DNA of 64,000 nt from Gammaproteobacteria bacterium (GTDB taxonomy: Bacteria; Pseudomonadota; Gammaproteobacteria; JACCYU01): contig JBOIDC010000011.1 in NCBI GenBank assembly GCA_050740315.1, positions 1,110 through 65,109 of the forward strand, read 5' to 3'. A program made the position numbers and the translations under genes. Shown piece by piece: positions 1,715 through 33,068 of the stretch. Each line of letters begins with the position of its first letter. The first letter of the stretch is position 1. Below the pieces are notes generated by a model, which was not told where the DNA came from, searched no databases, and was given only the letters and a program-made list of their open reading frames with translations.

Positions 1715-4566
<2,852 letters not shown>

Positions 4567-5337: not shown

Positions 5338-7502
5338 CCTCAGAACTACGCATACTGATCCTGGAAGACGTCGCCACGGATGCGGAGTTGGCCGAACGTG
5401 AACTGCGCAAGGCCGCCATCGCATTCACAGCCAGGCAGGTCAAGCATAAAGACGCCTTCGTGAAGGCCCTGCGCGAGTTCGCGCCGGATATCATTCTCTC
5501 CGATTACAAGCTGCCGCATTTCACCGCGCTGGATGCGCTCAGCATCGTCCGGGAACTCAAGGTCGATGCCCCATTCATTTTGATCACCGGCGCGCTCAAG
5601 GAAGAAGCGGCGGTCAGGTGCATGCGGGAAGGCGCGTATGACTACATCCTGAAGTCCAGCCTCAAGCGCCTTCCCTCCGCGGTATCGAACGCCTTGAAGA
5701 AAAGCGAGGCGGAGCGGGAGAAAGCAAAGGCGATACAATCGCTGCGCAAGAGCGAAGAACGCTTTCGGCTGGTCGCGCGCGCGACGAACGACGCGATCAG
5801 AGATTGGAATATGGTGACGAATGTCGTGTGGTGGAACGCGGGCGTCCGCACCCTCTTCGGCTACCCAAACGATGAGGTCACGAGGACATCAAACTGGTGG
5901 TTCGAACGCATACATCCTGACCACGTGGATCGGGTGACGGCCGGCGTGCTCGCCCTCGGCGACAATGACGCGCAGATATGGTTTGGTGAATATCCTTACC
6001 GCCGCGCCGATGGCACGTACGCCGCGGTCATCGATCGCGGCTTGATTTCGCGTGATGTGGAGGGGCGCCCGGTGCGGATGGTCAGTTCGATGATGGACAT
6101 CACGGAGCTCAGGCAGGCTGAGCAACGGATCGCACATCTAGCCTACTACGACGCCCTTACCGGGTTGCCGAACAGGACGTTATTCGAAGACCGCCTGCGC
6201 CAGGCATTGATGCTCGCGAAACGCAACGCGCAAGCCCTGTTTGTGATGTTTCTCGACCTGGACCGCTTCAAGACCTTCAACGATACACTGGGGCCCGCCG
6301 TGGGTGATCGTTTGCTGCACAGCGTAGCTCAGCGGCTAAAGAGCCACGTACGTGCAAGCGATACAGTCGCACGCTTCGCTGCCGATGGATTCGCGCTGTT
6401 ATTTATACAGATCGGCCGCGCCGGGGATGCCGCCGAGATCGCCGGAGTTGTCGAGGACGCGGTCGAGATTGCTCGCAATATCATTGAGGCCTTCAGGCCC
6501 CCATTCAACTTCGACGGGCAGGAGCTGTACGTCACCGCCAGCATCGGGATCAGCCTTTATCCCCACGACGGTGCAGACGAGCAGGCCCTGCTGAGGAACG
6601 CGGGCGCCGCCGTGCGCCGCGCCAAGGAACAGGGCGGCAACAACTATCAGTTCTACGCCGCCGATATGAATGACCAGGCCATCAAGCGCTTAAGCCTTGG
6701 CAACAGCCTGAGGCGGGGGCTCGAGCGCGAGGAGTTCCTGGTCTATTACCAACCGCTGGTCGATATCAACAGCGGACGCACGGTGGGCCTTGAAGCGCTA
6801 ATTCGCTGGCAGCATCCTGAATTGGGGCTGGTGTCTCCGGCCGAATTCATCCCCTTGGCGGAAGAGACCGGGTTAATCGTGGTCCTGGGGGAATGGGTGC
6901 TGCGCACCGCCTGCGCGAAACTCAAGGGCTGGCAGGAACAGGCCACTGAAACCCTGCGTTTATCGGTATCCGTCAATCTCTCGCCATACCAGTTCCAGCA
7001 ATCCAATCTGGTCGAGATGGTCGCCCAAGCACTAACGGATACCGGGCTTGACGCCAATTGCCTGGAGCTGGAATTGACAGAGGGCTCGGTCATGAAAAAT
7101 CCGGAGCGGACCATTTCGACGTTGCGGGAATTAAGAGAGATGGGGGTGCAGATCGCCATCGACGACTTCGGTTCGGGCTATTCTTCGCTGTCGTATCTCA
7201 AACGTTTCCCGATCGATCGGTTGAAAATCGACCAGTCTTTCGTGCGGGACACGACCAGCGATCCGGCCGATGCAGCCATCATCATGGCGATTATTACCCT
7301 TGCGCATAATTTAAGACTGAAGGTAATCGCGGAGGGCGTGGAAACGGACGAGCAACTGAGATTTCTGCGCCTGCTGAAATGCGATGAGGTGCAGGGATAC
7401 CTGTTCAGCAGACCGCTGCCGGCGGATGAGATCGGACAATTACTGCTACAAATGTGGCCTTTGACGGCGATGGAAAAACGTGCGAACGAAGCGCGATCCT
7501 GA
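5304..7502 (+). CDS. REC-PAS-GGDEF(degenerate)-EAL signalling protein, a likely c-di-GMP phosphodiesterase. The probable start is the ATG at 5334 ([13 protein letters not shown]).
   Basis: Receiver motifs are present ([17 protein letters not shown]), followed by a PAS region. The GGDEF domain has an RxxD I-site (RASD) but AADGF in place of GGDEF. EAL motifs are intact: [28 protein letters not shown] and QGYLFSRP. Confidence 0.85.
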
Positions 7503-9225: not shown

Positions 9226-10617
9226 ATGGCGCGCATGGCCGCGTTCCCCCGCATGAGCTGGTGGGAGACGCTGCGCGTCTATCGGCATCCGCGGGTAGTG
9301 GCGATGCTGTTTCTGGGCTTTTCGGCCGGGCTACCGTTTCTGCTGGTGTTTTCCACGTTGTCGGCGTGGCTGTCGGACGCGCAGGTGAGCCACAGCGCGA
9401 TCGGTTTCTTCAGCTGGGTCGGCATCACCTATTCGATCAAGGTGCTGTGGTCGCCGGTGGTCGATCGGCTGCCGATCCCGTGGCTGACGCGAAAGCTTGG
9501 CAAGCGGCGCAGCTGGATGCTGATGGCGCAAGCCGCCGTCGCCCTGGGTTTGCTGGGCATGGCGTTGATCGACCCCGCGCAGCAGCTGACCTACGTGGCC
9601 GCGTTCGCGCTGCTGGTTGCGTTCGGCTCGGCCACGCAGGACGTCGCGATCGACGCGTATCGCATCGAGGCGGTAATAAAAGAGCGGCAAGCCGCGATGG
9701 CCGCAACGTACATTCTCGGCTACCGCGTGGCGCTGCTGGTCGCCGGCGCCGGCGCGCTTTACATCGCTGAATTTGGTTCCTGGCCCGCGGCGTACATCGC
9801 CATGGCCGCGCTGATGTCGGTCGGCATGATCACCGTGCTGGTGATCGCGGAGCCAGTGCAGACCGTTGGTCGCGACGCTTATCAGCGCGAAGCGCGCGTG
9901 ATTGCGTTCATGGAACGCTCGGCGCATCTGCCACCGCGGTTGCGCGGCGCGATGGCGTGGTTCATCGGCGCGGTCGTGTGCCCGTTCGTGGATTTCTTCG
10001 CGCGCAACGGCGCGATGGCGCTCGTGATCCTGCTGTTCATCGGCGTGTTTCGCGTGGCTGACATCACCATGGGCGTAATGGCCAACCCGTTTTATCTGGA
10101 CCTGGGTTTCAGCAAGGCGGAGATTGCCAGCGTCACCAAGGTGTTCGGGTTTTTTATGACCATCGCCGGCGCGGCCGCCGGCGGTCTGCTGGTGGTGCGC
10201 TACGGCATCATGCGACCTTTGCTGCTGGGTGCCGTGCTGGCGGCGGCAACCAATCTGCTGTTCTCCCTGATGGCGGTAACCGGGCCGGACTTGTCGCTGC
10301 TGACGGTAACGATCAGCGCCGACAACCTGGTCGGCGGCCTGGCGGGCTCGGTGTTCATCGCGTATCTCTCCAGCCTCACCAACACGGCATATACCGCTAC
10401 ACAATATGCCCTGTTCAGCTCGCTGATGACCTTGCCGGGCAAGTTTATCGGCGGCTTCTCCGGCCTTGTCGTCGAGGCCCAGGGTTATTTTATCTTCTTC
10501 ATCTATTCAGCCCTCGTCGGCGTGCCGGCCATACTGCTGGTGCTGTATCTGATGCGCACGGCCAATGCCGACGGCGCTCGTACGAGTATCGCGCACGCAC
10601 AAAAGAGTCGCGTTTGA
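9226..10617 (+). CDS. ampG: AmpG muropeptide MFS permease. The start may be the ATG at 9253 (MSWWETL).
   Basis: MSWWETLRVYRHPRVVAMLFLGFSAGLPFLLVFSTLSAWL...FSWVGITYSIKVLWSPVVDR and about 12 TM segments. Confidence 0.85.
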   Translation: MARMAAFPRMSWWETLRVYRHPRVVAMLFLGFSAGLPFLLVFSTLSAWLSDAQVSHSAIGFFSWVGITYSIKVLWSPVVDRLPIPWLTRKLGKRRSWMLMAQAAVALGLLGMALIDPAQQLTYVAAFALLVAFGSATQDVAIDAYRIEAVIKERQAAMAATYILGYRVALLVAGAGALYIAEFGSWPAAYIAMAALMSVGMITVLVIAEPVQTVGRDAYQREARVIAFMERSAHLPPRLRGAMAWFIGAVVCPFVDFFARNGAMALVILLFIGVFRVADITMGVMANPFYLDLGFSKAEIASVTKVFGFFMTIAGAAAGGLLVVRYGIMRPLLLGAVLAAATNLLFSLMAVTGPDLSLLTVTISADNLVGGLAGSVFIAYLSSLTNTAYTATQYALFSSLMTLPGKFIGGFSGLVVEAQGYFIFFIYSALVGVPAILLVLYLMRTANADGARTSIAHAQKSRV

Positions 10618-10648
10618 CTTAGTTGAGTTTATGGTTCAGTATCAAACC

Positions 10649-10894
10649 ATGATCAAATTGAACGTCCATGAAGCTAAAACGCATCTATCCAGTTACCTCG
10701 CGCGGCTGGAGGCTGGCGAGACGATTCTGCTGTGCCGGCGCAATGTCCCTATCGCCGAAATCCGGCCCCTGACGGCGCCGCGATCCGATCCTCGTCCGAT
10801 AGGATTGGCCAAAGACACGTTTGCCGTTCCCGCATCGTTCTTCGAGCCCTTGCCTGAGGAAGAGATCGAGGCTTTCGAAGGGCGGCATGCGTGA
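10649..10894 (+). CDS. Phd/YefM-type antitoxin (type II toxin-antitoxin system).
   Basis: MIKLNVHEAKTHLSSYLARLEAGETILLCRRNVPIAEIRPL. Its stop overlaps the start of the downstream PIN gene (ATGA at 10891-10894). Confidence 0.8.
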   Translation: MIKLNVHEAKTHLSSYLARLEAGETILLCRRNVPIAEIRPLTAPRSDPRPIGLAKDTFAVPASFFEPLPEEEIEAFEGRHA

Positions 10895-11277
10895 GGCTAT
10901 TGCTGGATACGTGCACCTTCCTGTGGATCATAACCAACGCGGCAGAACTGAGTGACAGCGCCCGCGCGCGGTTCATGGATGCGGACAATGACGTATACCT
11001 GAGCGCCCTATCGGCGTGGGAAATTGCGGTCAAGCACAGGCTGGGAAAGCTGCCGCTGCCCGCTCCGGCCGAGCAATTCGTCGCCCAAGAGCGCGTGCAA
11101 CACGGCATCGAAAGCCTTGCGGTCGACGAAGCTGCAACGACGCATCTTTATCGGCTGCCGCCGCTGCATCGCGATCCGTTCGACCGCATGCTGGTCTGTC
11201 AGGCCATCGAACACGGCCTGGCGATCGTTACGCCAGACGCCCTGATTACACAGTATCCGGTGCGCACGGTCTGGTAA
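10891..11277 (+). CDS. vapC: VapC-type PIN-domain toxin.
   Basis: LLDTCTFLWIITN...SAWEIAVKHRLGKL...DPFDRMLVCQAIEHGLAIVTPDALITQYPV shows the PIN acidic residues and the characteristic C-terminus. Confidence 0.85.
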   Translation: MRLLLDTCTFLWIITNAAELSDSARARFMDADNDVYLSALSAWEIAVKHRLGKLPLPAPAEQFVAQERVQHGIESLAVDEAATTHLYRLPPLHRDPFDRMLVCQAIEHGLAIVTPDALITQYPVRTVW

Positions 11278-11309
11278 CGTTACGTCAGAGCGTGTTCGCC
11301 TTAAGGACT

Positions 11310-12272
11310 TCAAGTGCCCGTCGCCGCAATGACTCCACTGCCGCACTCGGCATCTAAAATGGCGCTAAGCTGAGCCGCGGACTTGAGTTTCACCAGATAG
11401 TTGCAGCCGGCATTGCCTGGCAGCCACCACGGACATCTGAGAGAGTATTCATCCAGGATGCCGTGGCCGTTATGGTTGCGCTTGAGTCTGAGGGCCTCAC
11501 CATGCGCGGGGCAGCGATAGAGCTCGGTTCCGCGTTTGCCGCGTCCATGTTCGTGTTGAATCTCATCAAGTGGCCTGCGCAGTCTGTCAGCGGAGCCTGC
11601 CGCGGTTATCAAGCCTGTCAACTCGGGCGAACTCAATTGGAACTCGGGCCGGCTCAGGTTGGCGAACATCTGCAAATCCGCGCTGGATAGTCGCTGCTTC
11701 CCCTCGCATGCGCGTTCGCCGTTCCGTCGTAACACGTACCAGCCTGAGCAGCCCCAGAAGAAGTCCCGAACCTTGGCGGTCTGTAGCGCACGTTGCCACT
11801 GAAGCACCATCGGTCGCGCACAGTTCGGGCACATCTTGTTATCGGTGGATTGTCCGACGTCATATTGAAGAATATGAGCCGTATTATCAGTGATTTGCGT
11901 AGCGGAGTATTCGCCCTGGTGCTTCCACACCTGTTCAGCGGTTTTGATTCGTTGTAGCTCTTCTAAAGCCTGCGTTAACTTTGCCCGTTCCGCCGTCAGG
12001 TGCTCAAGGTTTCGTCGCTCATGGGCGCTGAGCGCTCCGCTTGTGTGATAGCGCTCGCGAAGCCGCATGATCTGCTTGTTGACTTCCGCCAATTCGCGTT
12101 CGCGGGCTCCTATCGGATCACTTGGTTCTGGCCGGACGGAAGCTGCTACGGCTTCTGCAACCGCGCTGACGATCTTCTCGATGATCTTGCGAACTCTCGG
12201 CACCGCGATCTCGATGAATCCACGACCTACCCATTTGATATCACCCCAGATTTCTCTAACCACCGAAGGCAT
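11310..12272 (-). CDS. Hypothetical protein with an N-terminal coiled coil plus two topoisomerase-type C4 zinc-ribbon domains.
   Basis: CPNCARPMVLQWQR...DFFWGCSGWYVLRRNGERAC and YRCPAHGEALRLKRNHNGHG...RCPWWLPGNAGCNYLV look like the zf-C4_Topoisom pattern (CPxC...GCSxYPxC). An AGGAAAGG RBS-like sequence precedes the ATG. It lies 9 nt downstream of the broken nuclease-like gene. Confidence 0.6.
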   Translation of the reverse strand: MPSVVREIWGDIKWVGRGFIEIAVPRVRKIIEKIVSAVAEAVAASVRPEPSDPIGARERELAEVNKQIMRLRERYHTSGALSAHERRNLEHLTAERAKLTQALEELQRIKTAEQVWKHQGEYSATQITDNTAHILQYDVGQSTDNKMCPNCARPMVLQWQRALQTAKVRDFFWGCSGWYVLRRNGERACEGKQRLSSADLQMFANLSRPEFQLSSPELTGLITAAGSADRLRRPLDEIQHEHGRGKRGTELYRCPAHGEALRLKRNHNGHGILDEYSLRCPWWLPGNAGCNYLVKLKSAAQLSAILDAECGSGVIAATGT

Positions 12273-12281
12273 CGGCCTTTC

Positions 12282-13262
12282 CTAAGTCCCAGCGAGCAGT
12301 TTGCTGTGAAATTGTGCACGCAGCCGCAAAACATCGCATTGGCGCGTGAGCACAAGCATCAGGTCGCCACGGGTTCGATAACGATCCCAGTACCATCCCG
12401 CGAAAACGGCAGCAGGAATGGAGAGTAAGCCGCCATCAAAGCAAATAACCACTGCCCCGGCGCCTGTTGAAATCACCGCGCGCCCACCACGCGCCACGGC
12501 TTCCTCGGCGGCGTTAGTGACGGTTTGCTTATTGATCAGCACGCTGCGGGCTTGCATTGCAGCAATGAGCATCAGCGGCACTATCGGATTGAACGCGCCC
12601 CAGAACTGCTCAATAAACCCGGCGCCGTGGATATCCAATGTGTCCGCAACTGCTTGCTCGATGTCGTCTTCGGTGATCCCGGAATCCAGCACCATGCGCC
12701 CGTCTTGGAAGCGACCGGCGACTTCCGAAGTCGCTAGAATCGTGATGTCTGGATATGTCTCAAGCGCCGCCTTGACATAAGCCAAGGAATCGGTGGCTTT
12801 GAGCTGTAAATATCGGAAATGACTCCAGCATCATCAACAATCTTCAGGTCCCAGCCCGGCTGGGCCATATTTTCGGCAACGACGGCGCTATGGCCTTGGG
12901 GTAATGTGACATCGCCTACCGTTTGTCCATCGTTGAGCCGGTCTGCCACGAGGTATTCGAAGTACTTGCCCTTCGCACTGTTGACGATTCCCATCCACTC
13001 CGCATCGGAATAACCGAACAGCCGATCAGGTCCAAAATCGGGATTCGTATCCTGGATGGCTCGCAGTGCCAGCTCGTCAGGGTCGCGGCTCGTAAGTGTG
13101 TTGACGGCGAGTGTTGATGCGACCGCCGCCGCATCGTTCAGGCTTGAGCTTTATGTATTGACGATATTTTTCGACCAGGCGAGCCATCGGATCGATGTCG
13201 CCACCCCCGCCGCCGCGATAGCGATCGCGCCACCTTTGAACATAGGGCATTGGTCGGCTCAA
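12282..13262 (-). pseudogene. Restriction-endonuclease-like (Mrr-cat-like?) gene disrupted by two frameshifts.
   Basis: My own translation finds three consecutive ORF pieces in different frames: MPYVQRW...IKLKPE, then NDAAAV...GKYFEYLVADRLNDGQTVGDV...KIVDDAGVISDIY, then LQLKATDSLAYVKAAL...LLAGT. Each piece runs well past the junction with the next. Confidence 0.4.
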
Positions 13263-13489
13263 TCTGGCGAGTTGTGATCGCTTGGTCTGCGCGTTCTAAC
13301 CCGATCGATCGCGTTGCTACGCGATCCAGCAGCACCATCGACAGCCCTGTCTCGAAGCAGCCTGGTGACTTGCTTCTCCAAGCGTCCGACCCGATTGTTG
13401 AGTTGCACGAGCACGGAGTCCATGCCGCTAAGCACCTCTTCGATGCGCAAGTGATATTCGTTGAATCTGTCTTCCAGACGTTTAGACAT
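13259..13489 (-). CDS. Small hypothetical coiled-coil protein, 76 aa.
   Basis: MSKRLEDRFNEYHLRIEEVLSGMDSVLVQLNNRVGRLEKQV. An AGGAGA sequence lies 6-11 nt upstream of the ATG. The stop abuts the first piece of the broken gene. Confidence 0.4.
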   Translation of the reverse strand: MSKRLEDRFNEYHLRIEEVLSGMDSVLVQLNNRVGRLEKQVTRLLRDRAVDGAAGSRSNAIDRVRTRRPSDHNSPD

Positions 13490-13792
13490 GAAGCTCTCCT
13501 CAAAATGTTTAAGGACGCCCTCACTCTGAAACGCTCGCGCAAACGTCTGGTGCGAGCCGCAGGTCGGCGCATCTTAATGGTTCGACGAAACAGCAGGGAT
13601 CATAAGCGGACTTGCACCACGCATTGTTCGATTACCGACAGGCGGCATACTCGGAGCAGTCAGCGGTATCCTTTGCAACTTTGAAAAGCGTCATTTGCGA
13701 AAGGGTCACAACCTTTCGCGACGCACAAGATTCTCGATCGCGCTATGCGCTACCTAGTTCGGTGCGGAAGCGCAGATCATCGAGCCTGCAAG

Positions 13793-24725: not shown

Positions 24726-25475
24726 CTACGCATCTTCGCGTGTGTAGCGCTCGTGCAACTGCACCGGCTCGGCCTTGCGTTTGCGCAGGCGCATGTTCAA
24801 CATTTCCACGATGACCGAGAACGCCATCGCGAAGTAGATATAGCCCTTGGGCACGTGATGGCCCAGACCGTCGGCAATCAGCACGGCGCCAATCATGAAC
24901 AGGAACGACAAGGCCAGCATCTTTATGGTCGGATGCGCCGACACGAAGCGCCCGATCGGCCCCGCGGCCACCATCATCAGGCTTACCGAGGCGATGACCG
25001 CCGCGACCATGATCGCGATTTCGTTGACCATGCCGACGGCGGTGATGATGGAGTCGATGGAAAACACTGTGTCGATGATGAGGATCTGCACGATCACGGA
25101 GGCGAACGTGGCGGAAACCCTGGCCGAACCTTCGCCTTCCTCACCCTCCAGCAACTGATGCACCTCATGCGTGCTCTTGTAGAGCAGGAACAGCCCGCCG
25201 CACAGCAGAATCAGGTCGCGGCCGGAAATCTCCTGGCCGATGATCTCGAACAGCGGCGCGGTCAGCCCGATAATCCAGGACAGCAGCAGCAGCAGTCCGA
25301 TGCGCATGAACATGGCAAGCCCCAGACCGATGCGCCGCGCGAGATCGCGCTGACTTTCGGGGAGCTTGTCCGCGAGGATGGAGATGAAGACGATGTTGTC
25401 GATGCCCAGCACCAGTTCCAGCGCGGTCAGCGTGAAAAACGCGATCCAGGCGTCGGGGCTTGTCAGCAACTCCAT
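24726..25475 (-). CDS. TerC/Alx-family integral membrane protein.
   Basis: LVLGIDNIVFISILA...IDTVFSIDSIITAVGMV... Confidence 0.8.
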   Translation of the reverse strand: MELLTSPDAWIAFFTLTALELVLGIDNIVFISILADKLPESQRDLARRIGLGLAMFMRIGLLLLLSWIIGLTAPLFEIIGQEISGRDLILLCGGLFLLYKSTHEVHQLLEGEEGEGSARVSATFASVIVQILIIDTVFSIDSIITAVGMVNEIAIMVAAVIASVSLMMVAAGPIGRFVSAHPTIKMLALSFLFMIGAVLIADGLGHHVPKGYIYFAMAFSVIVEMLNMRLRKRKAEPVQLHERYTREDA

Positions 25476-25779
25476 AATCTATCCTCGTTTGAGTCATCAG
25501 GAAAATGCGCCGCACTCAGCGGGCGGCGATCGAATCACGGCCGCGTGTGGTGTCTGTTCTGCCGGCGCGGGTGCCGTCCCGGGGTGGGGCGCATCTTACA
25601 GCCTCGGCGGCGGCCGGTCATCAACCCCTAGGCAAAGGATCCCGCAAGTTCCGTCGATGATCGATAAGCGCGATCAGCAACGTCTTCGCACCGGAGGCTT
25701 ATGTGCGCCACGCAAACAACTGGCAAAAGGCGATTCGGCCGGAGAAATCTGAGTAAGAGCGGGATCGCTCAAGCATGCG

Positions 25780-26286
25780 CTAGCCTGCTTGCGCCGGCAG
25801 CCCTATTTCGACTACTTCGAGTTCCACATCACCGGCCGGTCGCCGCCAAGCAACCAGGTCGCCCTCGTGCGCGCCAAGCAGGGCCTTGCCCAAAGGTGAG
25901 ACCCAGCTGATGAGGTGATGCTCAACATCGGCTTCATCTTCGCCGACCAGCGTGTAGTTCGCCTCCTCTCCATCGGGCGCGGCGACCGTAACGCGGCAAC
26001 CGAACGTCACCTGTTCCGGAGCCTGCGCGGGCACCGGCACCAGCTTCGCCGATTCCACCCGCGCGGCGTAATAAGCGAGATTGCGCTCGACTTCGGCGAG
26101 GCGGTCGCGCGTGGCGATCTCCTCGCGCTCCTTCAGGTGTGACCGCTCCGCAGTCAGCTCGGCAAGACGCTGGTTCAGCAGCCTCAGGCCGCGCGGCGTG
26201 ACGTAGTTGGTGTCGGTGCTGATCGGGCGTTCGAGCGGCGCGGCGTTATCAGCGACAAGATCCTCGTTGACGAAAGCGCGGCTCAT
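25780..26286 (-). CDS. GreA/GreB-family transcription elongation factor.
   Basis: Coiled-coil N-terminal half plus an FKBP-like C-terminal domain (...VTFGCRVTV...SPLGKALLGAHEGDLV). AGGAGG lies 6 nt upstream of the ATG at 26284-26286. Confidence 0.7.
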   Translation of the reverse strand: MSRAFVNEDLVADNAAPLERPISTDTNYVTPRGLRLLNQRLAELTAERSHLKEREEIATRDRLAEVERNLAYYAARVESAKLVPVPAQAPEQVTFGCRVTVAAPDGEEANYTLVGEDEADVEHHLISWVSPLGKALLGAHEGDLVAWRRPAGDVELEVVEIGLPAQAG

Positions 26287-26428
26287 ATCAACCTCCTGTT
26301 GAGTCATTAATACGCAGGGCCCTCCGGGCGGCGGTTTGAAGGCAAAACTTAAGTCCGGTGTCAGTCTAGCGCGTTTCGCGCCTGGCCCCAATCAGTGAGG
26401 TCGACGGGGCGGCGCCGATCGATCAGCG

Positions 26429-27625
26429 TCACTCTTCAGCGGGAGTCGCCGTGTTCGTTTGGCGCAGGCCTTGCCTGCTACACATCTTGCTCAGCGCCTC
26501 CAGCAGTGTGTCGATATGCGCCTGGGTATGCGCCGCCGAGAGCGTGATGCGCAGGCGCGCGCTGCCTGTGGGCACGGTGGGCGGGCGGATGGCGGTGATG
26601 AGCAGGCCTCGAGCGAATAGCGCGTCGCTGATTGCCGTGGCTCTCGCGGCGTCGCCGATGATCAGCGGCTGGATAGGCGTGTGGCTTTGCGTTAACGGCA
26701 AGCTCAGCGTTTGCGCGCCGTCTCGGAAGCGTTCGATCAGACTGCGCAGTTTGTCTCTGCGCCACGTTTCCTGCTGTACCACACGCAGCGCCGCGCGTGC
26801 CGCCTCGGCCACCGCGGGCGGCGGGGCGGTGGTGTAGATGTACGTGCGCGCGCTCTGAATGAGCGTCTCGATCAGCGCCTCGCCACCGGCCACGAACGCG
26901 CCGAAGACGCCGAACGCCTTGCCCAGCGTGCCCATCAGTATCGGCACGCGCCGGTTCCCAACGCCCAGATGCTCCAAGGTGCCGCGCCCGCGGTCGCCCA
27001 GCACGCCCAGGCCGTGCGCGTCATCGACCATCAGCCAGGCATCGTGTTCATCGGCGACGTTCGCGAGGGCGTCAAGCGGCGCCGTGTCGCCGTCCATGCT
27101 GAAAACGCCGTCGGTCGCGATCAATTTTTCACCACTCGCACGGGTCGCAAGCTTGCGGCTCAAGCGCTGAGTATCGCGGTGCGGATAACGCACAAGACGC
27201 GCGCCGGACAGCAATCCGGCGTCCAGCAGCGAGGCGTGGTTGAAGCGATCCTGAAAAATCGCGTCGCCGCGCCCGACCAGCGCCGAGATCACGCCCAGGT
27301 TCGCCATGTAGCCGGTCGAGAAAAGCAACGCGCGCGCGCGGCCGGTGTATGTGGCAAGTTCTTCTTCCAGCGCGTGATGCGCGCGAGAGTGGCCGTTGAC
27401 CAAATGTGCCGCGCCGCTGCCCACACCGTACTCATCGGCCGCCTTTTTGAACGCGGCGACGACCTCGGCATGATTGGCCAGCCCCAGATAATCGTTGCTG
27501 CAAAACGACAGCACCCGTTTGCCGTCGATGAACTGCTCCGGCCCTTGCGGCCCCTCGGCGATGCGCCGGGCGCGGTAAAGCCCAACCGTGCGGCGCCGCT
27601 TCAGTGGGGCGTGCAAGTCTCTCAT
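26429..27625 (-). CDS. bioF: 8-amino-7-oxononanoate synthase.
   Basis: SNDYLGL...PLP-fold aminotransferase class II, with the TLGKAFG lysine motif. Confidence 0.88.
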   Translation of the reverse strand: MRDLHAPLKRRRTVGLYRARRIAEGPQGPEQFIDGKRVLSFCSNDYLGLANHAEVVAAFKKAADEYGVGSGAAHLVNGHSRAHHALEEELATYTGRARALLFSTGYMANLGVISALVGRGDAIFQDRFNHASLLDAGLLSGARLVRYPHRDTQRLSRKLATRASGEKLIATDGVFSMDGDTAPLDALANVADEHDAWLMVDDAHGLGVLGDRGRGTLEHLGVGNRRVPILMGTLGKAFGVFGAFVAGGEALIETLIQSARTYIYTTAPPPAVAEAARAALRVVQQETWRRDKLRSLIERFRDGAQTLSLPLTQSHTPIQPLIIGDAARATAISDALFARGLLITAIRPPTVPTGSARLRITLSAAHTQAHIDTLLEALSKMCSRQGLRQTNTATPAEE

Positions 27626-27678
27626 GCGGATTTCGCTTGCGCTATTGACAAAAGACGTCTGGACGTCCAGGATTCCTG

Positions 27679-28861
27679 CATGCCAAAAAATGATGCAAGA
27701 TGTTTACCGGGCCAGGTACGTGATGCCATCGTTCATGTCTTGACCGACGCTGCGAAAGCGCTGTCTGTAAAGGAAATCGAGCAACGGGTTCAGCAGATCA
27801 TCGGGCCCACGCCGAAGTCTTCTATCAGATCGTATCTCAGACTGAACACCCCTGATCTCTTCGTGCGCGAGGACAGAGGCGTGTACCGCTCGCGGCAAAG
27901 CACGCCGCCGCACAGGCAGCGTGATCTCCCCTCATTGGAGCCTGGAGAGCCGCCCTATACGCTTGGCGATGTCACCATGTTCCACGCCGATTGCTTTCAG
28001 TGGCTCGAACAACAGCCGGCAGACTCGTTTCATGCGATTGTCACTGATCCGCCTTACGGATTGCATGAATATACACCGGAACAACAGGCAAAATTGCGGG
28101 TTGGTAAGGGCGGCGTATGGAGGATCCCGCCTGCCTTTGATGGGCATAAGCGCGCCCCGCTGCCTCGTTTTACAACATTGACCGGCAACCAGATTGAGGA
28201 ATTGCGTGATTTTTTTCTGCTATGGACGCGGTCGCTGCTGCCAAAGCTTGTGCCGGGCGCACACGTGATCGTTGCCTCCAACCCTTTGATGTCGCACGTG
28301 GTCGCGTGGGCGCTGGCCGCCGGCGGCCTCGAAAGGCGCGGAGAAGTCATTCGCCTGACTATGACCATGCGCGGCGGTGATCGTCCGAAAGCCGCACACG
28401 CGGAGTTTCCGGGGGTAAGCGTCCTTCCAAGGTCGATGTGGGAGCCTTGGCTTATCTATCGGAAGCCAATAGAGGGTCGGGTTCAAGATAACTTGAGGAA
28501 ATGGAAAACCGGGGGCTTTCGGCGGCCATCACTCGTTAAACCGTTTGGCGACGTTATTCCCTCCGCGCCGACTCGGAGCTCAGAGCGGAAGCTGGCACCG
28601 CATCCAAGCCTTAAACCTCAAGCGTTTCTTCGAGAAGTAGTTCGCGCATCGCTGCCGTTGGGTGAGGGCGTAGTGTTGGATCCGTTTGCCGGCGCGGGAT
28701 CGACGCTTGCCGCCTGTCTGGCGGTCGGCTACTCGGGGGTGGGGATAGAAAAAGACGCTTACTATTTCAAGATGGCGTGCGAGTCCATTCCAAGGCTTGC
28801 CGCGTACAAAGGAAACGGCTCCGCTAAAGCTTATACAGCCAATTCTCTCGAAGTCTTCTAA
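27679..28861 (+). CDS. DNA methyltransferase, beta-class (motif IV DPPY precedes motif I), probably N6-adenine, with an N-terminal ~95-aa extension.
   Basis: AIVTDPPYGL comes N-terminal to DPFAGAGSTLAA (FxGxG). The true start is the ATG at 27679 (MPKNDARCLPGQ). The 26711..27678 part of the track ORF is bioF antisense. AT-richer than the bio genes. Confidence 0.8.
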
Positions 28862-29447
28862 TTCCTTCCTTGTGCAGTGTTGCGGTCCTTGTGCCAAGCT
28901 CGCCGCGGGCGTTCTTTCGGAAATCTTCCGTTGCTACCCGGCCCAAATAGACTTCCGTAAATGCCATCGGCAGCCGGTTGGATGCAGGCTCAGTCTCCAG
29001 GTCGATCTGATAAACAAATACGCACATCCACTGGTTGCGCGCGCCGTGTGTATCGACCGCGCCGCCACGCTTCCTCGTGGTCTTGATTTCGATACCCTCC
29101 GTGCCGGCCTTGGCAGCATTGCCGGGATAGATGCCTTGCACAACGAGATCGGGATGTCCATTGAAGTAAGTATTCTCCGTCAGCGCTCGCGCGTGTTTGG
29201 CTAAGCTTGCAGTGAGCATGTCAGATAACACACCAGACATAATCGCGGGACGCAGCATGTCGTCCAGACGCTGCAATCCCTTGCCGGTTAAATGGCTGTT
29301 CACGTCGAAGAAGAAGTGGTATGCGTCCTGCAGCGCAAGCTGGAAATCCTCCAGCCGCAGTTCATACGGCAACGTCAACGCGCGATTGAAAGCTTTATGC
29401 CTGACAGTGTTTCTTACAATCGGCATGTGTTCCGCTGTGATCGGCAC
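28824..29447 (-). CDS. Putative Type II restriction endonuclease (PD-(D/E)xK), about 208 aa. The start is uncertain (GTG at 29447, ATG at 29426, or TTG at 29456).
   Basis: ...NGHPDLVVQGIYPGNAAKAGTEGIEIKTTRK has PD, 19 aa, then ExK. It converges on the methyltransferase with a ~38-nt 3' overlap and immediately follows ecsC on the same strand. Confidence 0.55.
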   Translation of the reverse strand: MPITAEHMPIVRNTVRHKAFNRALTLPYELRLEDFQLALQDAYHFFFDVNSHLTGKGLQRLDDMLRPAIMSGVLSDMLTASLAKHARALTENTYFNGHPDLVVQGIYPGNAAKAGTEGIEIKTTRKRGGAVDTHGARNQWMCVFVYQIDLETEPASNRLPMAFTEVYLGRVATEDFRKNARGELGTRTATLHKEGIRRLRENWLYKL

Positions 29448-29452
29448 TAACG

Positions 29453-30232
29453 TCAAAATCGCTCGTACGTCGTTCTGACCGTAGCTCGATCGTATTTCCG
29501 TTCCAGGCGCCGGATCATGAAATGTCCGCGCGCGATATCCTGATAGTGGTCGATGAACAGCACGTTGACGACCGCGCCGCCCGCGGCGCCGATAATGGGC
29601 AAGGCCTGCGCCGCCACCTTTTCGGACACCACCATGCCGAAGCGGGACGCGATCTGCGTGATGAACCGCACCAGCGCGGGCGCGCCCTGTCGCGCGACGC
29701 CTTTTCGCGCGATGTGCTGCGCCGCTTCCGCCAGCACCTGTTGCAGTGCGGCGCGCACCGCGAAATAGCCCGTCTCGGTGGCGTCGTCTGACGTTGTGCG
29801 GCCGCCAAGGGCAAAGACCTCGATGCAGGCAAGCATGGATTCCGGTGTCCCGATCAGTTCGCCCTCACTGCGCGCGACATCCGCGATTGACCGCAGCATC
29901 ACGACTGTGGAAATCGGCAGTTCCACCGGCAGGCCGGCCAGCCCGAACGCACCGCCGCCCGCGCCGGTGCCCGCCACGACGAGCTTGTGCAAGAGATTGG
30001 ACGGCGGCCGCAACGCGCGCCGATTCAGGCTCGTGACCGCAAGCCGCAACGCCTTTTCAAGCGCCACGCGCGTCGAGTGATTGACGATCTCCGCGGCCGA
30101 AGCAGGCAATAATTTGAGTCCCTGTTCGATCGGCGTGCCCAGCGCGTTCGCGATCCTGGCGGCCAGGCTCGGATTTTCGAGCAGGGCCCGGGCATCCCGC
30201 AGCGTTTCCAGATCTTCGTCGGACAGGATCAC
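29453..30232 (-). CDS. EcsC-family protein.
   Basis: ...GAGGGAFGLAGLPVELPISTVVMLRSIADVARSEGE... resembles the EcsC family. Its stop lies 1-6 nt from the nuclease start. Confidence 0.55.
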   Translation of the reverse strand: MILSDEDLETLRDARALLENPSLAARIANALGTPIEQGLKLLPASAAEIVNHSTRVALEKALRLAVTSLNRRALRPPSNLLHKLVVAGTGAGGGAFGLAGLPVELPISTVVMLRSIADVARSEGELIGTPESMLACIEVFALGGRTTSDDATETGYFAVRAALQQVLAEAAQHIARKGVARQGAPALVRFITQIASRFGMVVSEKVAAQALPIIGAAGGAVVNVLFIDHYQDIARGHFMIRRLERKYDRATVRTTYERF

Positions 30233-30325
30233 TGCGGAAACCTTCCTAGTCCCTTACCCATTGGTCGGCGGGCGAGTGTGCAGCGCGAACGTCAGGGCGG
30301 CCGCGCAAGATGTACGCCGCGGCGT

Positions 30326-31405
30326 CTATGGAAGCCTTGCGGCCGGCGATGCTGGGCCGCTCGGGCGCGCATCTGTGGCGCCGGCATTCAACGGTTTAAG
30401 GCCCAGACGCTCGAGTAATCGTTCGTCGTCGTGCATCTCCGGGTTCGCCGTAGTGAGCAGTTTCTCGCCGTAGAAAATCGAATTGGCGCCCGCGAAAAAA
30501 CACAGCGCCTGCTGCTCGTCGCTCATGCTCGTGCGCCCGGCCGAAAGCCGCACCATGGACTGCGGCATAAGGATGCGCGTCGTCGCGATGGTGCGCACGA
30601 ACTCGAGCGGATCGAAACTTGCGGCGTTATGAAGCGGTGTGCCCGCGACCCGCACCAGCAGGTTGATCGGTACCGATTCAGGATGCGTTGGCAGATTGGC
30701 GAGCTGCCGCAGCAACCCGGCGCGATCGCGGCGCGATTCGCCCATGCCTAAAATTCCACCGCTGCAGACGCTTATCCCGGCATCGCGCACGTGCGCCAGC
30801 GTGTCCAGCCGATCCTGATACACGCGCGTGGTGATGACATTGCCGTAGAATTCCGGCGAGGTGTCCAGGTTATGATTGTAAAAATCCAGTCCCGCCGCCC
30901 GCAGCCGCTGCGCCTGCGCATCGGTCAGCATGCCTAGGGTTGCGCAGGTCTCCAGCCCCAGCATCTTGACCGCGCGGATCATCTCGATCACCTTATCGAG
31001 TTGCCTGTCGGTCGGATTGCGCCAGGCCGCACCCATGCAGAAGCGCGACGCGCCGCCGGCTTTGGCCGTCTTCGCGCTCGCGACAACGTCGTTCAGCGGC
31101 AGCAGGGGCTCGCGCTCGAGCGCGGTATGGTAGCGCGCGCTCTGTGGACAATAGCCGCAGTCTTCCGGGCAGGCGCCGGTCTTGATTGACAGCAGCGTGC
31201 TGATTTGTATGGCGTTGGGGTCGTGATACTCGCGGTGGATGGCGTGCGCGGTGAACAGCAGATCGTTGAAGGGCAATGCAAGCCACGCCTCGATCTCGTC
31301 CACCCGCCAGTCGTGGCGGATGGCAGGCTGACCGGGCGCCGTCTGAACGGACATGGGCTGGCTCATCGGGTCCTCTGGGGGTGATTTTAAAGGCGATGTC
31401 GTCAC
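30326..31405 (-). CDS. bioB: Biotin synthase. The start may be the internal ATG at 31366 (MSQPMS...).
   Basis: [16 protein letters not shown] (radical-SAM CxxxCxxC) ...[12 protein letters not shown]... Confidence 0.92.
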
Positions 31406-31481
31406 GATGGTTGCACGTCAAGCACGCGGCAAGCAGCGCCAGTCTATCCGGCGCGGCAACGCTGTCAACCGAAGGCGCTTT

Positions 31482-32178
31482 GATGGCTTATCGATGGATG
31501 CGCGATTTGCGCGCATTCGCTTATCCCCCGACCTGCGTGTTGTGCGAGGCGCGGGGGCACGATGATCTCGATCTGTGCGCGGACTGCGCCGACGAGCTGC
31601 CGCGGTTGGGCTACACCTGCGCGCGCTGCGCCCTGCCGGTTGCATCACCGGATGTATTGGTCTGCGGCGCCTGCCAGCAACGGCCGCCTGCTTTCGATAA
31701 GGCGATGGCCTTGTATCATTACCAGCCGCCGGTGAGCTATCTGATCCACCAGCTCAAGTTCCACGGCCGGCTCCTGCACGCGCGGCTGCTGGGACATCTG
31801 CTGGCCGAGCATCTGTCCGCGAGCGCACGACCGGAATGTATCGTGCCGGTGCCCCTGCATCCGCGCCGCATCCGTGGCCGCGGCTTCAATCAGGCAGTGG
31901 AACTCGCCCGCCATATCGGGCGTCGTCTGCGCGTTCCGGTGGATGCCAGGTGCGTACGGCGGAACAGACATACCGATCCGCAGATGGAATTGCCGGCAAA
32001 GGCGCGGCGCAAGAACATCCGCGGCGCCTTCGAGATCGCGGCCGGCTTCAACGCGCGCCACGTGGCGATCCTGGACGACGTGATCACCACCGGTGCCACC
32101 GCCCATGAATTGGCGCGGGTCTTAAGGCGGGCGGGCGCGGAGCGCATCGAGGTGTGGAGCATTGCGCGCGTGGCCTAG
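31482..32178 (+). CDS. comF: ComF family protein (phosphoribosyltransferase-like).
   Basis: Zinc-ribbon cysteines (CxxC...CxxC), then a PRTase motif [13 protein letters not shown]. Confidence 0.8.
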
Positions 32179-33068
32179 CCGAATCGATAGTCCAGCACGA
32201 TGCCGGCGAACACGGTCAGCCCGAACCAGTTATTGTTGAGAAAGGCGCGAAAGCAGCGTGAAGGCTCGCGGCCGGCAATCAATGCTTGTTGATAGATCGC
32301 GAAGCCCGTCGCGGCGAGCAGGCCCAGATAGTAATAAACCCCCAGGCCCGCCTGGCGGCCGATCAGGATCAGGTCCAGGATCAACGCGAGCTGGATCAGG
32401 CCGATGATCGCGCGATCCGCGCGGCCGAACAGGATCGCGGTGGATTTGACGCCGACCTTGATATCATCGTCGCGATCGGCCATCGCATACATGGTGTCGT
32501 ATACGGTGGCCCACAGCACCGCAGCGAAGAAGATAAGCCACCCGACCGGCGGCGGCAGCGCGCCGGTTTGCGCGGTGAAGGCCATCGGCACCGCCCAGCC
32601 AAACGCCGCGCCCAGATGCGCCTGCGGCAGGTAGTGGACTCGCTTCATGAACGGATAGCTGGCGGCGAGCGCTGCGCCGGGCACCGACAGCAACACGGTG
32701 AGCGGATTGGTCAGCCACACCAGCGCGAACGCGGCGAGGCTCAGCACGACGAACACGCCCAGCGCTTCGCGCGGCGAGATGCTGCCGCGTGCCAGCGGGC
32801 GATCACGCGTGCGCTCGACCCAGGGGTCGAGGTCGCGGTCGGCGAAATCGTTGATCGCGCATCCCGCCGAGCGCATGATGACCACACCCGCGATCATGAT
32901 CCACAGCACGCGCGCGTCCGGCAGTCCTTCGGCTGCGATCCACAATGCCCACAGCATCGGCCATAGCAGCAGAAATATGCCGATCGGCCGGTTCAGGCGT
33001 ACCAGCAGCGCGTATTGCCGGGCCTTGTTTGAAATCGCGCTCGGGTCAATGGCGGCGTGTTTATCCAT
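32175..33068 (-). CDS. ubiA: 4-hydroxybenzoate octaprenyltransferase.
   Basis: UbiA prenyltransferase motifs NDFADRDLD and [13 protein letters not shown]. Confidence 0.9.

Follow-up and report, generated by a model that had tools for sequence, protein, structure and literature searches.

The biotin genes bioB and bioF are normally adjacent. What has come between them in the gammaproteobacterial contig JBOIDC010000011.1 (GenBank assembly GCA_050740315.1), and where did it come from? The window analysed here is a 64,000-nucleotide (nt) stretch of this contig, in which bioB and bioF are 2.7 kb apart. The interval holds an ecsC-family gene, a gene for a nuclease candidate (R) and, on the opposite strand, a gene for a DNA methyltransferase (M). 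We conclude, with a probability of roughly 0.85, that positions 27645-29426 are a compact, horizontally acquired Type II restriction-modification (R-M) cassette of a widespread, uncharacterised family, that the cassette is an old, vertically inherited insertion between bioB and bioF, and that M is probably autoregulated. An original prediction made from the sequence alone had proposed a horizontally acquired Type II R-M cassette within a biosynthetic operon. It is borne out by low GC content at third codon positions (GC3), by fold matches of R to Type II restriction endonucleases (REases), by linkage of R and M in foreign contexts and by 80 other loci that lack the cassette.

A convergent pair of R and M genes

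R (28824-29426, minus strand) and M (27680-28861, plus strand) are separate, adjacent and convergent genes in the map of open reading frames (ORFs). Their coding regions overlap tail-to-tail by 38 nt (28824-28861, both strands), in agreement with the overlap of about 38 nt first read. M is 393 amino acids (aa) long. The longest ORF of R spans 28824-29456, begins with TTG and encodes 210 aa. Because about 120 homologues begin with MPI in an alignment of starts, the start of R was placed at the ATG at 29426, which gives a protein of 200 aa. The nuclease had been described as an ORF of about 208 aa with a PD...ExK motif; the motif stands, with 19 residues from D to E, and the length does not. The start also lies farther from ecsC than the few nucleotides first proposed. 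It is 27 nt past the ecsC stop and 30 nt further in.

The predicted fold of R is that of a Type II restriction endonuclease

The R protein of the window has no match in Pfam, NCBIfam, PADLOC, PHROGs or PDB sequences, and the profile of its family likewise found none in the PDB. The family itself is large. A word-indexed search returned at least 8000 database entries, and an exhaustive search of representatives at 50% identity returned 670 clusters. The best homologues, at about 77% identity, are from Planctomycetota, a Deltaproteobacteria metagenome-assembled genome (MAG) and a Binatia MAG, among others. To examine conservation, 27 diverse homologues were aligned. The motif of R reads GHPD (P92, D93) followed by EGIEIK (E113, K115). 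No member departs from P92, G111, K115 or T179, and E113 is almost as constant. Catalysis is predicted to depend on D93, E113 and K115.

An AlphaFold2 (AF2) model of R built on the 27-member alignment has high confidence (pLDDT 93, pTM 0.89). It places PD at the start of a strand and ExK inside the next long strand. When the model was compared with the PDB by Foldseek, ranks 1-26 were all Type II REases, among them EcoRV, NaeI, SfiI and NlaIV, and later ranks were noise. EcoRV was matched with a probability of 0.98, and NaeI with a probability of 1.0 and a template modeling (TM) score of 0.44. The fold check proposed with the original prediction thus came out in favor of a restriction endonuclease fold. 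In addition, 16/27 family members match the PADLOC REase_II model PDLC03564 (best E 3.5e-10). One of the 27 members scanned, P0226, is fused to a Control_protein helix-turn-helix (HTH) domain. These results suggest that R is a PD-(D/E)XK Type II restriction endonuclease, with cleavage activity predicted from its sequence and model.

M is a beta-class DNA methyltransferase that travels with R

M carries DPPY at residues 123-126 ahead of FAGAGST at residues 336-342. This is the beta order, and together with a match to Pfam N6_N4_Mtase (E 1.4e-14) it upholds the first assignment of M to the beta-class N6A/N4C DNA methyltransferases. The best match of M is the PADLOC MTase_II model PDLC03215 (E 9.4e-102), and its nearest sequence relatives in the PDB are CcrM, DpnA, RsrI and MboIIA. 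It had been allowed that M might prove to be a ParB-associated or other non-DNA methyltransferase. M contains no ParB domain, and its domain content rules out this reading; the MTase_II match and the four PDB relatives likewise point to a DNA enzyme. The AF2 model of full-length M is poor (pLDDT 46). In GCA_975322995.1, which carries an identical contig (L001), the methyltransferase ORF was missed by the public gene calls and appears as a 1.2-kb gap at 10603-11802, where the ORF is intact.

In every context examined, the R homologue adjoins a methyltransferase of the same N6_N4 family, and the flanking genes are unrelated. The contexts include a Planctomycetota chromosome, a Deltaproteobacteria MAG, Actinomycetota and several metagenome contigs. 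Among plasmids they include 4.9-kb Col-type plasmids of Klebsiella (ColE1-type), Citrobacter and Raoultella, and plasmids of Gordonia, Rhizobium, Iamia and Mycobacterium avium. The other cassettes are usually tail-to-tail as well, with an R/M overlap of 4-16 nt. Homologues in other phyla and on plasmids are about 70% identical for M and about 77% for R. In PLSDB, 22 plasmids carry M and 21/22 also carry R.

The one M plasmid in PLSDB without R is that of Microvirga sp. VF16 (L180). There, at 2210-4503, M stands in tandem with an unrelated nuclease of 356 aa, which matches PADLOC REase_II PDLC03399 (E 1e-89). The L180 M has the same N-terminal winged helix and the same GACGTC-TG-GACGTC promoter as M of the window (see below). 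Since it is 62-74% identical to methyltransferases partnered with the 200-aa nuclease and nests among them, one M family has two unrelated nuclease partners. Two other cassettes differ in other ways. On Acidiphilium multivorum pACMV5 (L179, 2435-4305), a distant cassette has a classical XRE-type controller (C) gene with GACT...AGTC boxes ahead of R. In a Planctomycetota MAG (L003, about 7150-7300), M is frameshifted at a C run beside an intact R. The frameshift probably stems from misassembly of a long-read contig; a genuine one would leave the nuclease unprotected.

The cassette is foreign to the bioB-bioF junction

To compare the junction among relatives, a BioF scan with one genome per species was carried out, which yielded 80 gammaproteobacterial loci at 57-69% identity. 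In 65/80 loci bioB immediately precedes bioF on the same strand, at a median distance of 130 nt between aligned segments, as expected of genes said to be normally adjacent. The comparison of this junction in related genomes had been put forward as a check, and ecsC, R and M are absent from the junction in 80/80 of these more distant loci. In the window both flanking genes are on the minus strand, with domains and coordinates that agree with the first reading of the locus. The upstream flank is bioB (biotin synthase, 30326-31405), with Radical_SAM and BATS domains, and the downstream flank is bioF (8-amino-7-oxononanoate synthase, 26429-27625), with Aminotran_1_2 (E 3e-57). A repeat scan of the locus found neither a target-site duplication nor flanking repeats at the insertion.

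The composition of R and M also differs from that of their neighbors. GC is 0.539 in R and 0.569 in M, against 0.634 in bioB and 0.662 in bioF, so the lower GC first estimated by eye was correct. GC3 follows the same pattern, at 0.64 in R and 0.60 in M, compared with 0.78 in bioB and 0.80 in bioF. The 1.8-kb cassette is among the lowest 2.3% in GC of windows of the same size in the 64 kb, which makes it atypical, not unique. Three consecutive ORFs of 320, 167 and 144 aa at 11310-13572 (minus strand) have no Pfam match and a GC of about 0.55, like the cassette; they may be a second acquired island.

The third gene of the interval, at 29453-30232 on the minus strand, encodes 259 aa and is an ecsC-family gene as first described (Pfam EcsC, PF12787; E 2.4e-26, 93.3 bits against a cut-off of 30.4). 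With a GC of 0.651 and a GC3 of 0.79, its composition is host-like, and it does not accompany the cassette elsewhere. Because of these two properties ecsC was probably a separate event from the R-M cassette. The view that ecsC belongs to the inserted stretch thus holds in that the gene is missing from the 80 other loci, and fails in that it shares neither the composition nor the company of the cassette.

Single genes of other kinds occupy the same junction in two loci. In a Thioalkalivibrio MAG (L012, 7238-8008) it is a class I S-adenosylmethionine (SAM) methyltransferase, and in a Halothiobacillus MAG (L039, 7363-7977) an ankyrin-repeat protein. The bioB-bioF junction is therefore a recurrent insertion point. 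On the other side of bioF, a GreA/GreB-like gene follows in the clade of the window (25780-26391). The usual downstream genes in related gammaproteobacteria are bioH/C/D. At E 1e-5 a GreA/GreB-like gene was found beside bioF in 0/80 other gammaproteobacterial loci, and the downstream side of the operon also looks rearranged.

The insertion is old and R is decaying in relatives

Closer relatives of the locus were found by an EcsC scan that covered 80 metagenomic ecsC loci. Two metagenome contigs, L088 and L089, have the order comF, bioB, ecsC, R, M, bioF, greA-like, as in the window, with nucleotide identity of about 81%, and they alone among these loci have ecsC at this site. When the window is compared with L088, R has a synonymous divergence (dS) of 1.05 and M of 0.78, and the flanking genes span 0.59-1.28. 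The ratio of nonsynonymous to synonymous divergence (omega) is 0.035 for R and 0.08 for M. Because dS resembles that of the flanks and omega is low, the cassette has diverged together with the locus under purifying selection. Judged from these comparisons, the insertion is old and predates the split of at least three lineages.

Relatives with the same three genes at native GC would have spoken for an ancestral arrangement. L088 and L089 do share the genes. The composition is not native, as GC3 of the R-M genes in L088 is 0.57 against 0.66-0.77 in the flanks, and the 80 more distant loci are without the genes.

R is damaged in both relatives. The L088 gene has a 1-nt deletion after codon 37, and the L089 gene has lost about 442 bp (window 29331-28890). 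Low omega downstream of the lesion suggests that the L088 frameshift is recent. M shows no damage in L088, nor in L089 as far as the contig reaches. R-M systems classically decay in this way, with R lost and M kept.

A winged-helix-like module and a tandem hexamer in the M promoter

The N-terminal 75 residues of M (27680-27904, plus strand) form a winged-helix-like module according to the secondary structure of the AF2 model. Within residues 10-71 the model has helices at 10-23, 30-41 and 46-54 and strands at 61-65 and 68-71 that make a hairpin, with pLDDT of 73-85. Residues 47-58 (SSIRSYLRLNTP) are invariant in 23 homologues, and SSIRSYLRL is the predicted recognition helix. Pfam returned only sub-threshold matches to domains of unknown function (DUFs) for the module. 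In three other cassettes (L170, L171, L172), the R proteins of which are only 34-57% identical, the module is a free ORF of about 75-85 aa just upstream of an M of about 300 aa.

The M promoter and its putative operator were read from the sequence at 27645-27679 (plus strand). After TTGACA (27645-27650) come a spacer of 17 nt, AAA-GACGTC-TG-GACGTC, the hexamer CAGGAT (27668-27673), 6 nt and the ATG. The two hexamers of the spacer lie at 27654-27659 and 27662-27667, separated by TG. The same layout is found upstream of M or of the free module in 15/16 cassettes from several phyla, with better -10 hexamers such as TATACT and TATCCT. It is kept even though the R proteins are 34-100% identical, and it always lies 5' of the winged-helix segment, whether fused or free. 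The tandem GACGTC-NN-GACGTC occurs once in the window and not at all in 1.53 Mb of control loci. In the distant cassette L179, M has no winged helix and its promoter has no GACGTC pair. In several cassettes the -10 hexamer sits 6-7 nt from the start codon, which suggests that their M mRNA is leaderless.

Because the GACGTC pair is located in the spacer, is conserved and is absent where the module is absent, it may be read as the operator of the winged-helix module. The module would bind the tandem GACGTC-NN-GACGTC between -35 and -10, block RNA polymerase and shut off M. The pair is thus a putative operator through which M would repress itself.

Variants and additional copies of the element were also observed. 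In L178 (5760-5790) it reads GACGTT-TG-GACGTT, with both hexamers changed alike. The two may truly have changed in concert, or long reads may err systematically where the site is methylated. In the window, the 10-nt operator core CGTCTGGACG recurs in inverted orientation at 29261-29270, inside the R coding region at conserved LQRLDD codons. This copy may be a coincidence or a secondary site.

Is GACGTC the recognition site of the system?

We wondered whether the tandem hexamers are primarily the system's own recognition sites, of the AatII type (G-m6A-CGTC), with the M promoter controlled by their methylation state as in the CfrBI system. This is a serious contender to which we give somewhat less than an even chance. 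It is compatible with a winged-helix operator, and it would make R a second, unrelated nuclease family for GACGTC. ZraI (GAC^GTC) is a blunt-cutting neoschizomer of AatII, and the EcoRV/NaeI/NlaIV-like fold of R is typical of blunt cutters. Dam, whose length enters the following arithmetic, is a protein of 278 aa. M.AatII makes G-m6A-CGTC, and from plasmid sizes (3750 bp against 3592 bp for the Dam construct) it comes to 331 aa (PMC3287169). All M homologues match PADLOC PDLC03215, a model of 331 positions. Furthermore, the Microvirga plasmid L180 combines an M of this family and the same promoter motif with a nuclease that matches PDLC03399, a model of 345 positions; R.AatII is presumably also 345 aa long.

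The identification of PDLC03215 and PDLC03399 as AatII profiles is an argument from matching lengths. GACGTC is not avoided in the window, where it occurs 16 times against 20.7 expected and ranks 19/64 among palindromes. The cassette without the winged helix (L179) also lacks the motif, and the concerted GACGTT/GACGTT change in L178 fits a protein operator better than a palindromic target. Nothing useful was found in the literature on the Klebsiella homologue under its accession, on methylation of GACGTC in Klebsiella or on the ZraI genes.

A more elaborate design joins these elements. A winged-helix controller, fused or free, would bind tandem copies of the system's own GACGTC site with an occupancy set by methylation by M. 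R would be an EcoRV-like, possibly ZraI-type blunt, partner of AatII-like methyltransferases, and in this genome its gene would have lost its own promoter and be driven by the biotin operon. Such a control design would be undescribed, and we regard it as speculative and rather doubtful. If true, it would tie an essential biosynthetic transcript to a toxic gene.

Proposed transcription through the insertion

How bioF is reached by RNA polymerase was examined by pattern searches. The bioF ATG is 19 nt from the -35 box of the M promoter. On the minus strand, no sigma-70-like promoter was found in the 775 nt upstream of bioF (at least 8/12 matches required), and no terminator-like site was found between the bioB stop and the bioF start. 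The sole minus-strand terminator match, at 30515-30502, is inside bioB. The only good minus-strand promoter candidate for bioB-ecsC-R...bioF lies upstream of bioB at 31468-31441 (31441-31468 in forward numbering). It is a sigma-70-like TTGACA-16-TAGACT with 10/12 matches in a consensus scan, a pattern match only. R has no recognisable promoter of its own in the window; in L004 TTGACA-17-TATGCT lies upstream of R. No Rfam family was found in 25000-33000.

The most economical reading is one transcript that would run from bioB through ecsC and R, and antisense through M, into bioF. R would then most likely be read within the bioB-ecsC-R transcript, which would run on antisense through M to reach bioF. 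Convergent transcription with a weak, autorepressed M promoter would follow.

Weighing the alternatives

Several observations weigh against an old, autoregulated R-M cassette as described above. R of the window falls below the threshold of every profile library, and its homology to a known REase model is transitive only. Its fold matches have TM scores of 0.35-0.44 and E of about 3e-3. D93 is kept in most of the 27 R homologues and replaced in a few. The winged helix is called from a moderately confident segment of a poor M model, and the -10 hexamer of the M promoter (CAGGAT) is weak in the window. The transcript structure is read only from missing promoter-like and terminator-like matches. 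Finally, GC3 has not ameliorated despite a dS of about 0.8, which is a poor fit to long residence unless GC was much lower at the outset or the composition is constrained.

Do these observations favor another account? The 200-aa protein could belong elsewhere among the PD-(D/E)XK proteins, for example as a nuclease of repair or regulation or as a DNA binder without activity, which would leave M effectively an orphan. Consistent with this are the lack of a direct profile match, the variation at D93 and the loss of R in two relatives that kept M. We hold it to be highly improbable, because the best fold matches are exclusively restriction enzymes, members of the family match the REase_II model, with one member fused to a controller protein and another preceded by one, linkage of R to M is near-perfect, and an omega of 0.035 indicates selection on the protein. 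The three genes might also be ancestral in this part of the Gammaproteobacteria and lost elsewhere, with nothing inserted; three lineages do share the layout at a dS of about 0.8. This account is barely credible. Precise loss would have had to occur independently dozens of times, R and M are foreign in composition, and their homologues at about 77% and 70% identity reside in other phyla and on plasmids.

A less distant alternative is a joint arrival of ecsC, R and M on one three-gene island. The window, L088 and L089 have all three genes, the 80 other loci have none of them, and no ecsC-only intermediate was found at this site among the 80 metagenomic ecsC loci. Against a joint arrival, ecsC is host-like in GC (0.65) and GC3 (0.79) and R and M are not, ecsC accompanies 0/16 other cassettes, R or M is present at 0/78 other ecsC loci, and the junction has taken up single genes in L012 and L039. 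A joint arrival is therefore unlikely. The preferred sequence of events is that the bioB-bioF junction of an ancestor would have taken up the R-M cassette, with ecsC landing independently, and that the locus would since have been inherited vertically under purifying selection. M would protect the genome, and R, with its EcoRV/NaeI-like fold, would cut unmodified DNA.

Implications

In every named record examined, including clinical Klebsiella Col-type plasmids, members of the R family are called "hypothetical protein". If R were recognised as the nuclease of a Type II system, many annotations would be corrected, and the hosts concerned would be seen to carry a barrier to DNA transfer. The winged-helix module and the tandem hexamer offer a concrete candidate regulatory circuit for a beta-class methyltransferase. 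The locus also presents a natural series of the R-M life cycle, from acquisition through long vertical retention under selection to independent loss of R with M kept, and it is a case of two convergent foreign genes lodged within a biosynthetic transcription unit.

Comparison with known systems

The predicted fold of R is closest to the EcoRV/NaeI/NlaIV/SfiI branch of restriction enzymes, which supplies its sole meaningful fold matches and has PD...ExK on equivalent strands. R differs from this branch in having no detectable sequence similarity, even with the family profile, in TM scores that do not exceed 0.44, and in its smaller size (200 aa). The cassette resembles the AatII system in an M that strongly matches a methyltransferase profile of 331 positions, a candidate AatII profile by its length, in the pairing of an M of this family with a nuclease matching the 345-position profile in Microvirga, and in GACGTC as the conserved hexamer of the M promoter. 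Because R of the window has no match to the 345-position REase profile PDLC03399, it is not an R.AatII homologue.

The nearest parallels to the proposed regulation are SsoII and Ecl18kI, in which an N-terminal DNA-binding region of the methyltransferase regulates transcription (PMC3978073, PMC2760811). As predicted for the window cassette, a DNA-binding module of about 70-75 residues is N-terminal on the methyltransferase, a conserved DNA element lies in the promoter region, and autorepression of M is the expected outcome. In contrast, the SsoII and Ecl18kI enzymes methylate cytosine at C5, and their R and M genes diverge from an operator that lies between them, whereas M of the window is a beta-class N6/N4 enzyme and the genes are convergent. 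The element of the window is a tandem 6-bp palindrome in the promoter spacer, and the module is a predicted winged helix that is a free gene in distant cassettes.

Systems with C proteins, such as PvuII and Esp1396I, also have a small DNA-binding protein at the head of an R-M gene, with operators in its own promoter (PMC2175313, PMC2504287). The free winged-helix ORFs of L170-L172 are placed like C genes, and their promoters seem to leave little or no leader. Classical C proteins belong to the XRE type of HTH proteins, are encoded upstream of R and activate it; the module of the window is fused to M and upstream of M. The window has neither an ORF for an XRE-type controller nor a Control_protein match, and such features were found only in L179 and P0226.

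Two further systems are precedents for a 6-bp palindrome in the control of an R-M promoter, acting through methylation or through a small repeat-binding repressor. In CfrBI, expression is modulated by a copy of the system's own site that lies in the promoter (bioRxiv 10.64898/2025.12.04.692298). RptR represses a Type I R-M island and binds repeats of the palindrome TAGCTA (PMC12255303); the likeness is drawn from the description in that paper only. The proteins and the types of system differ from those of the window cassette. Compared with all of these, the cassette is of an otherwise ordinary and very widespread kind, and what is new is the winged-helix module on M together with its conserved tandem-hexamer promoter element.

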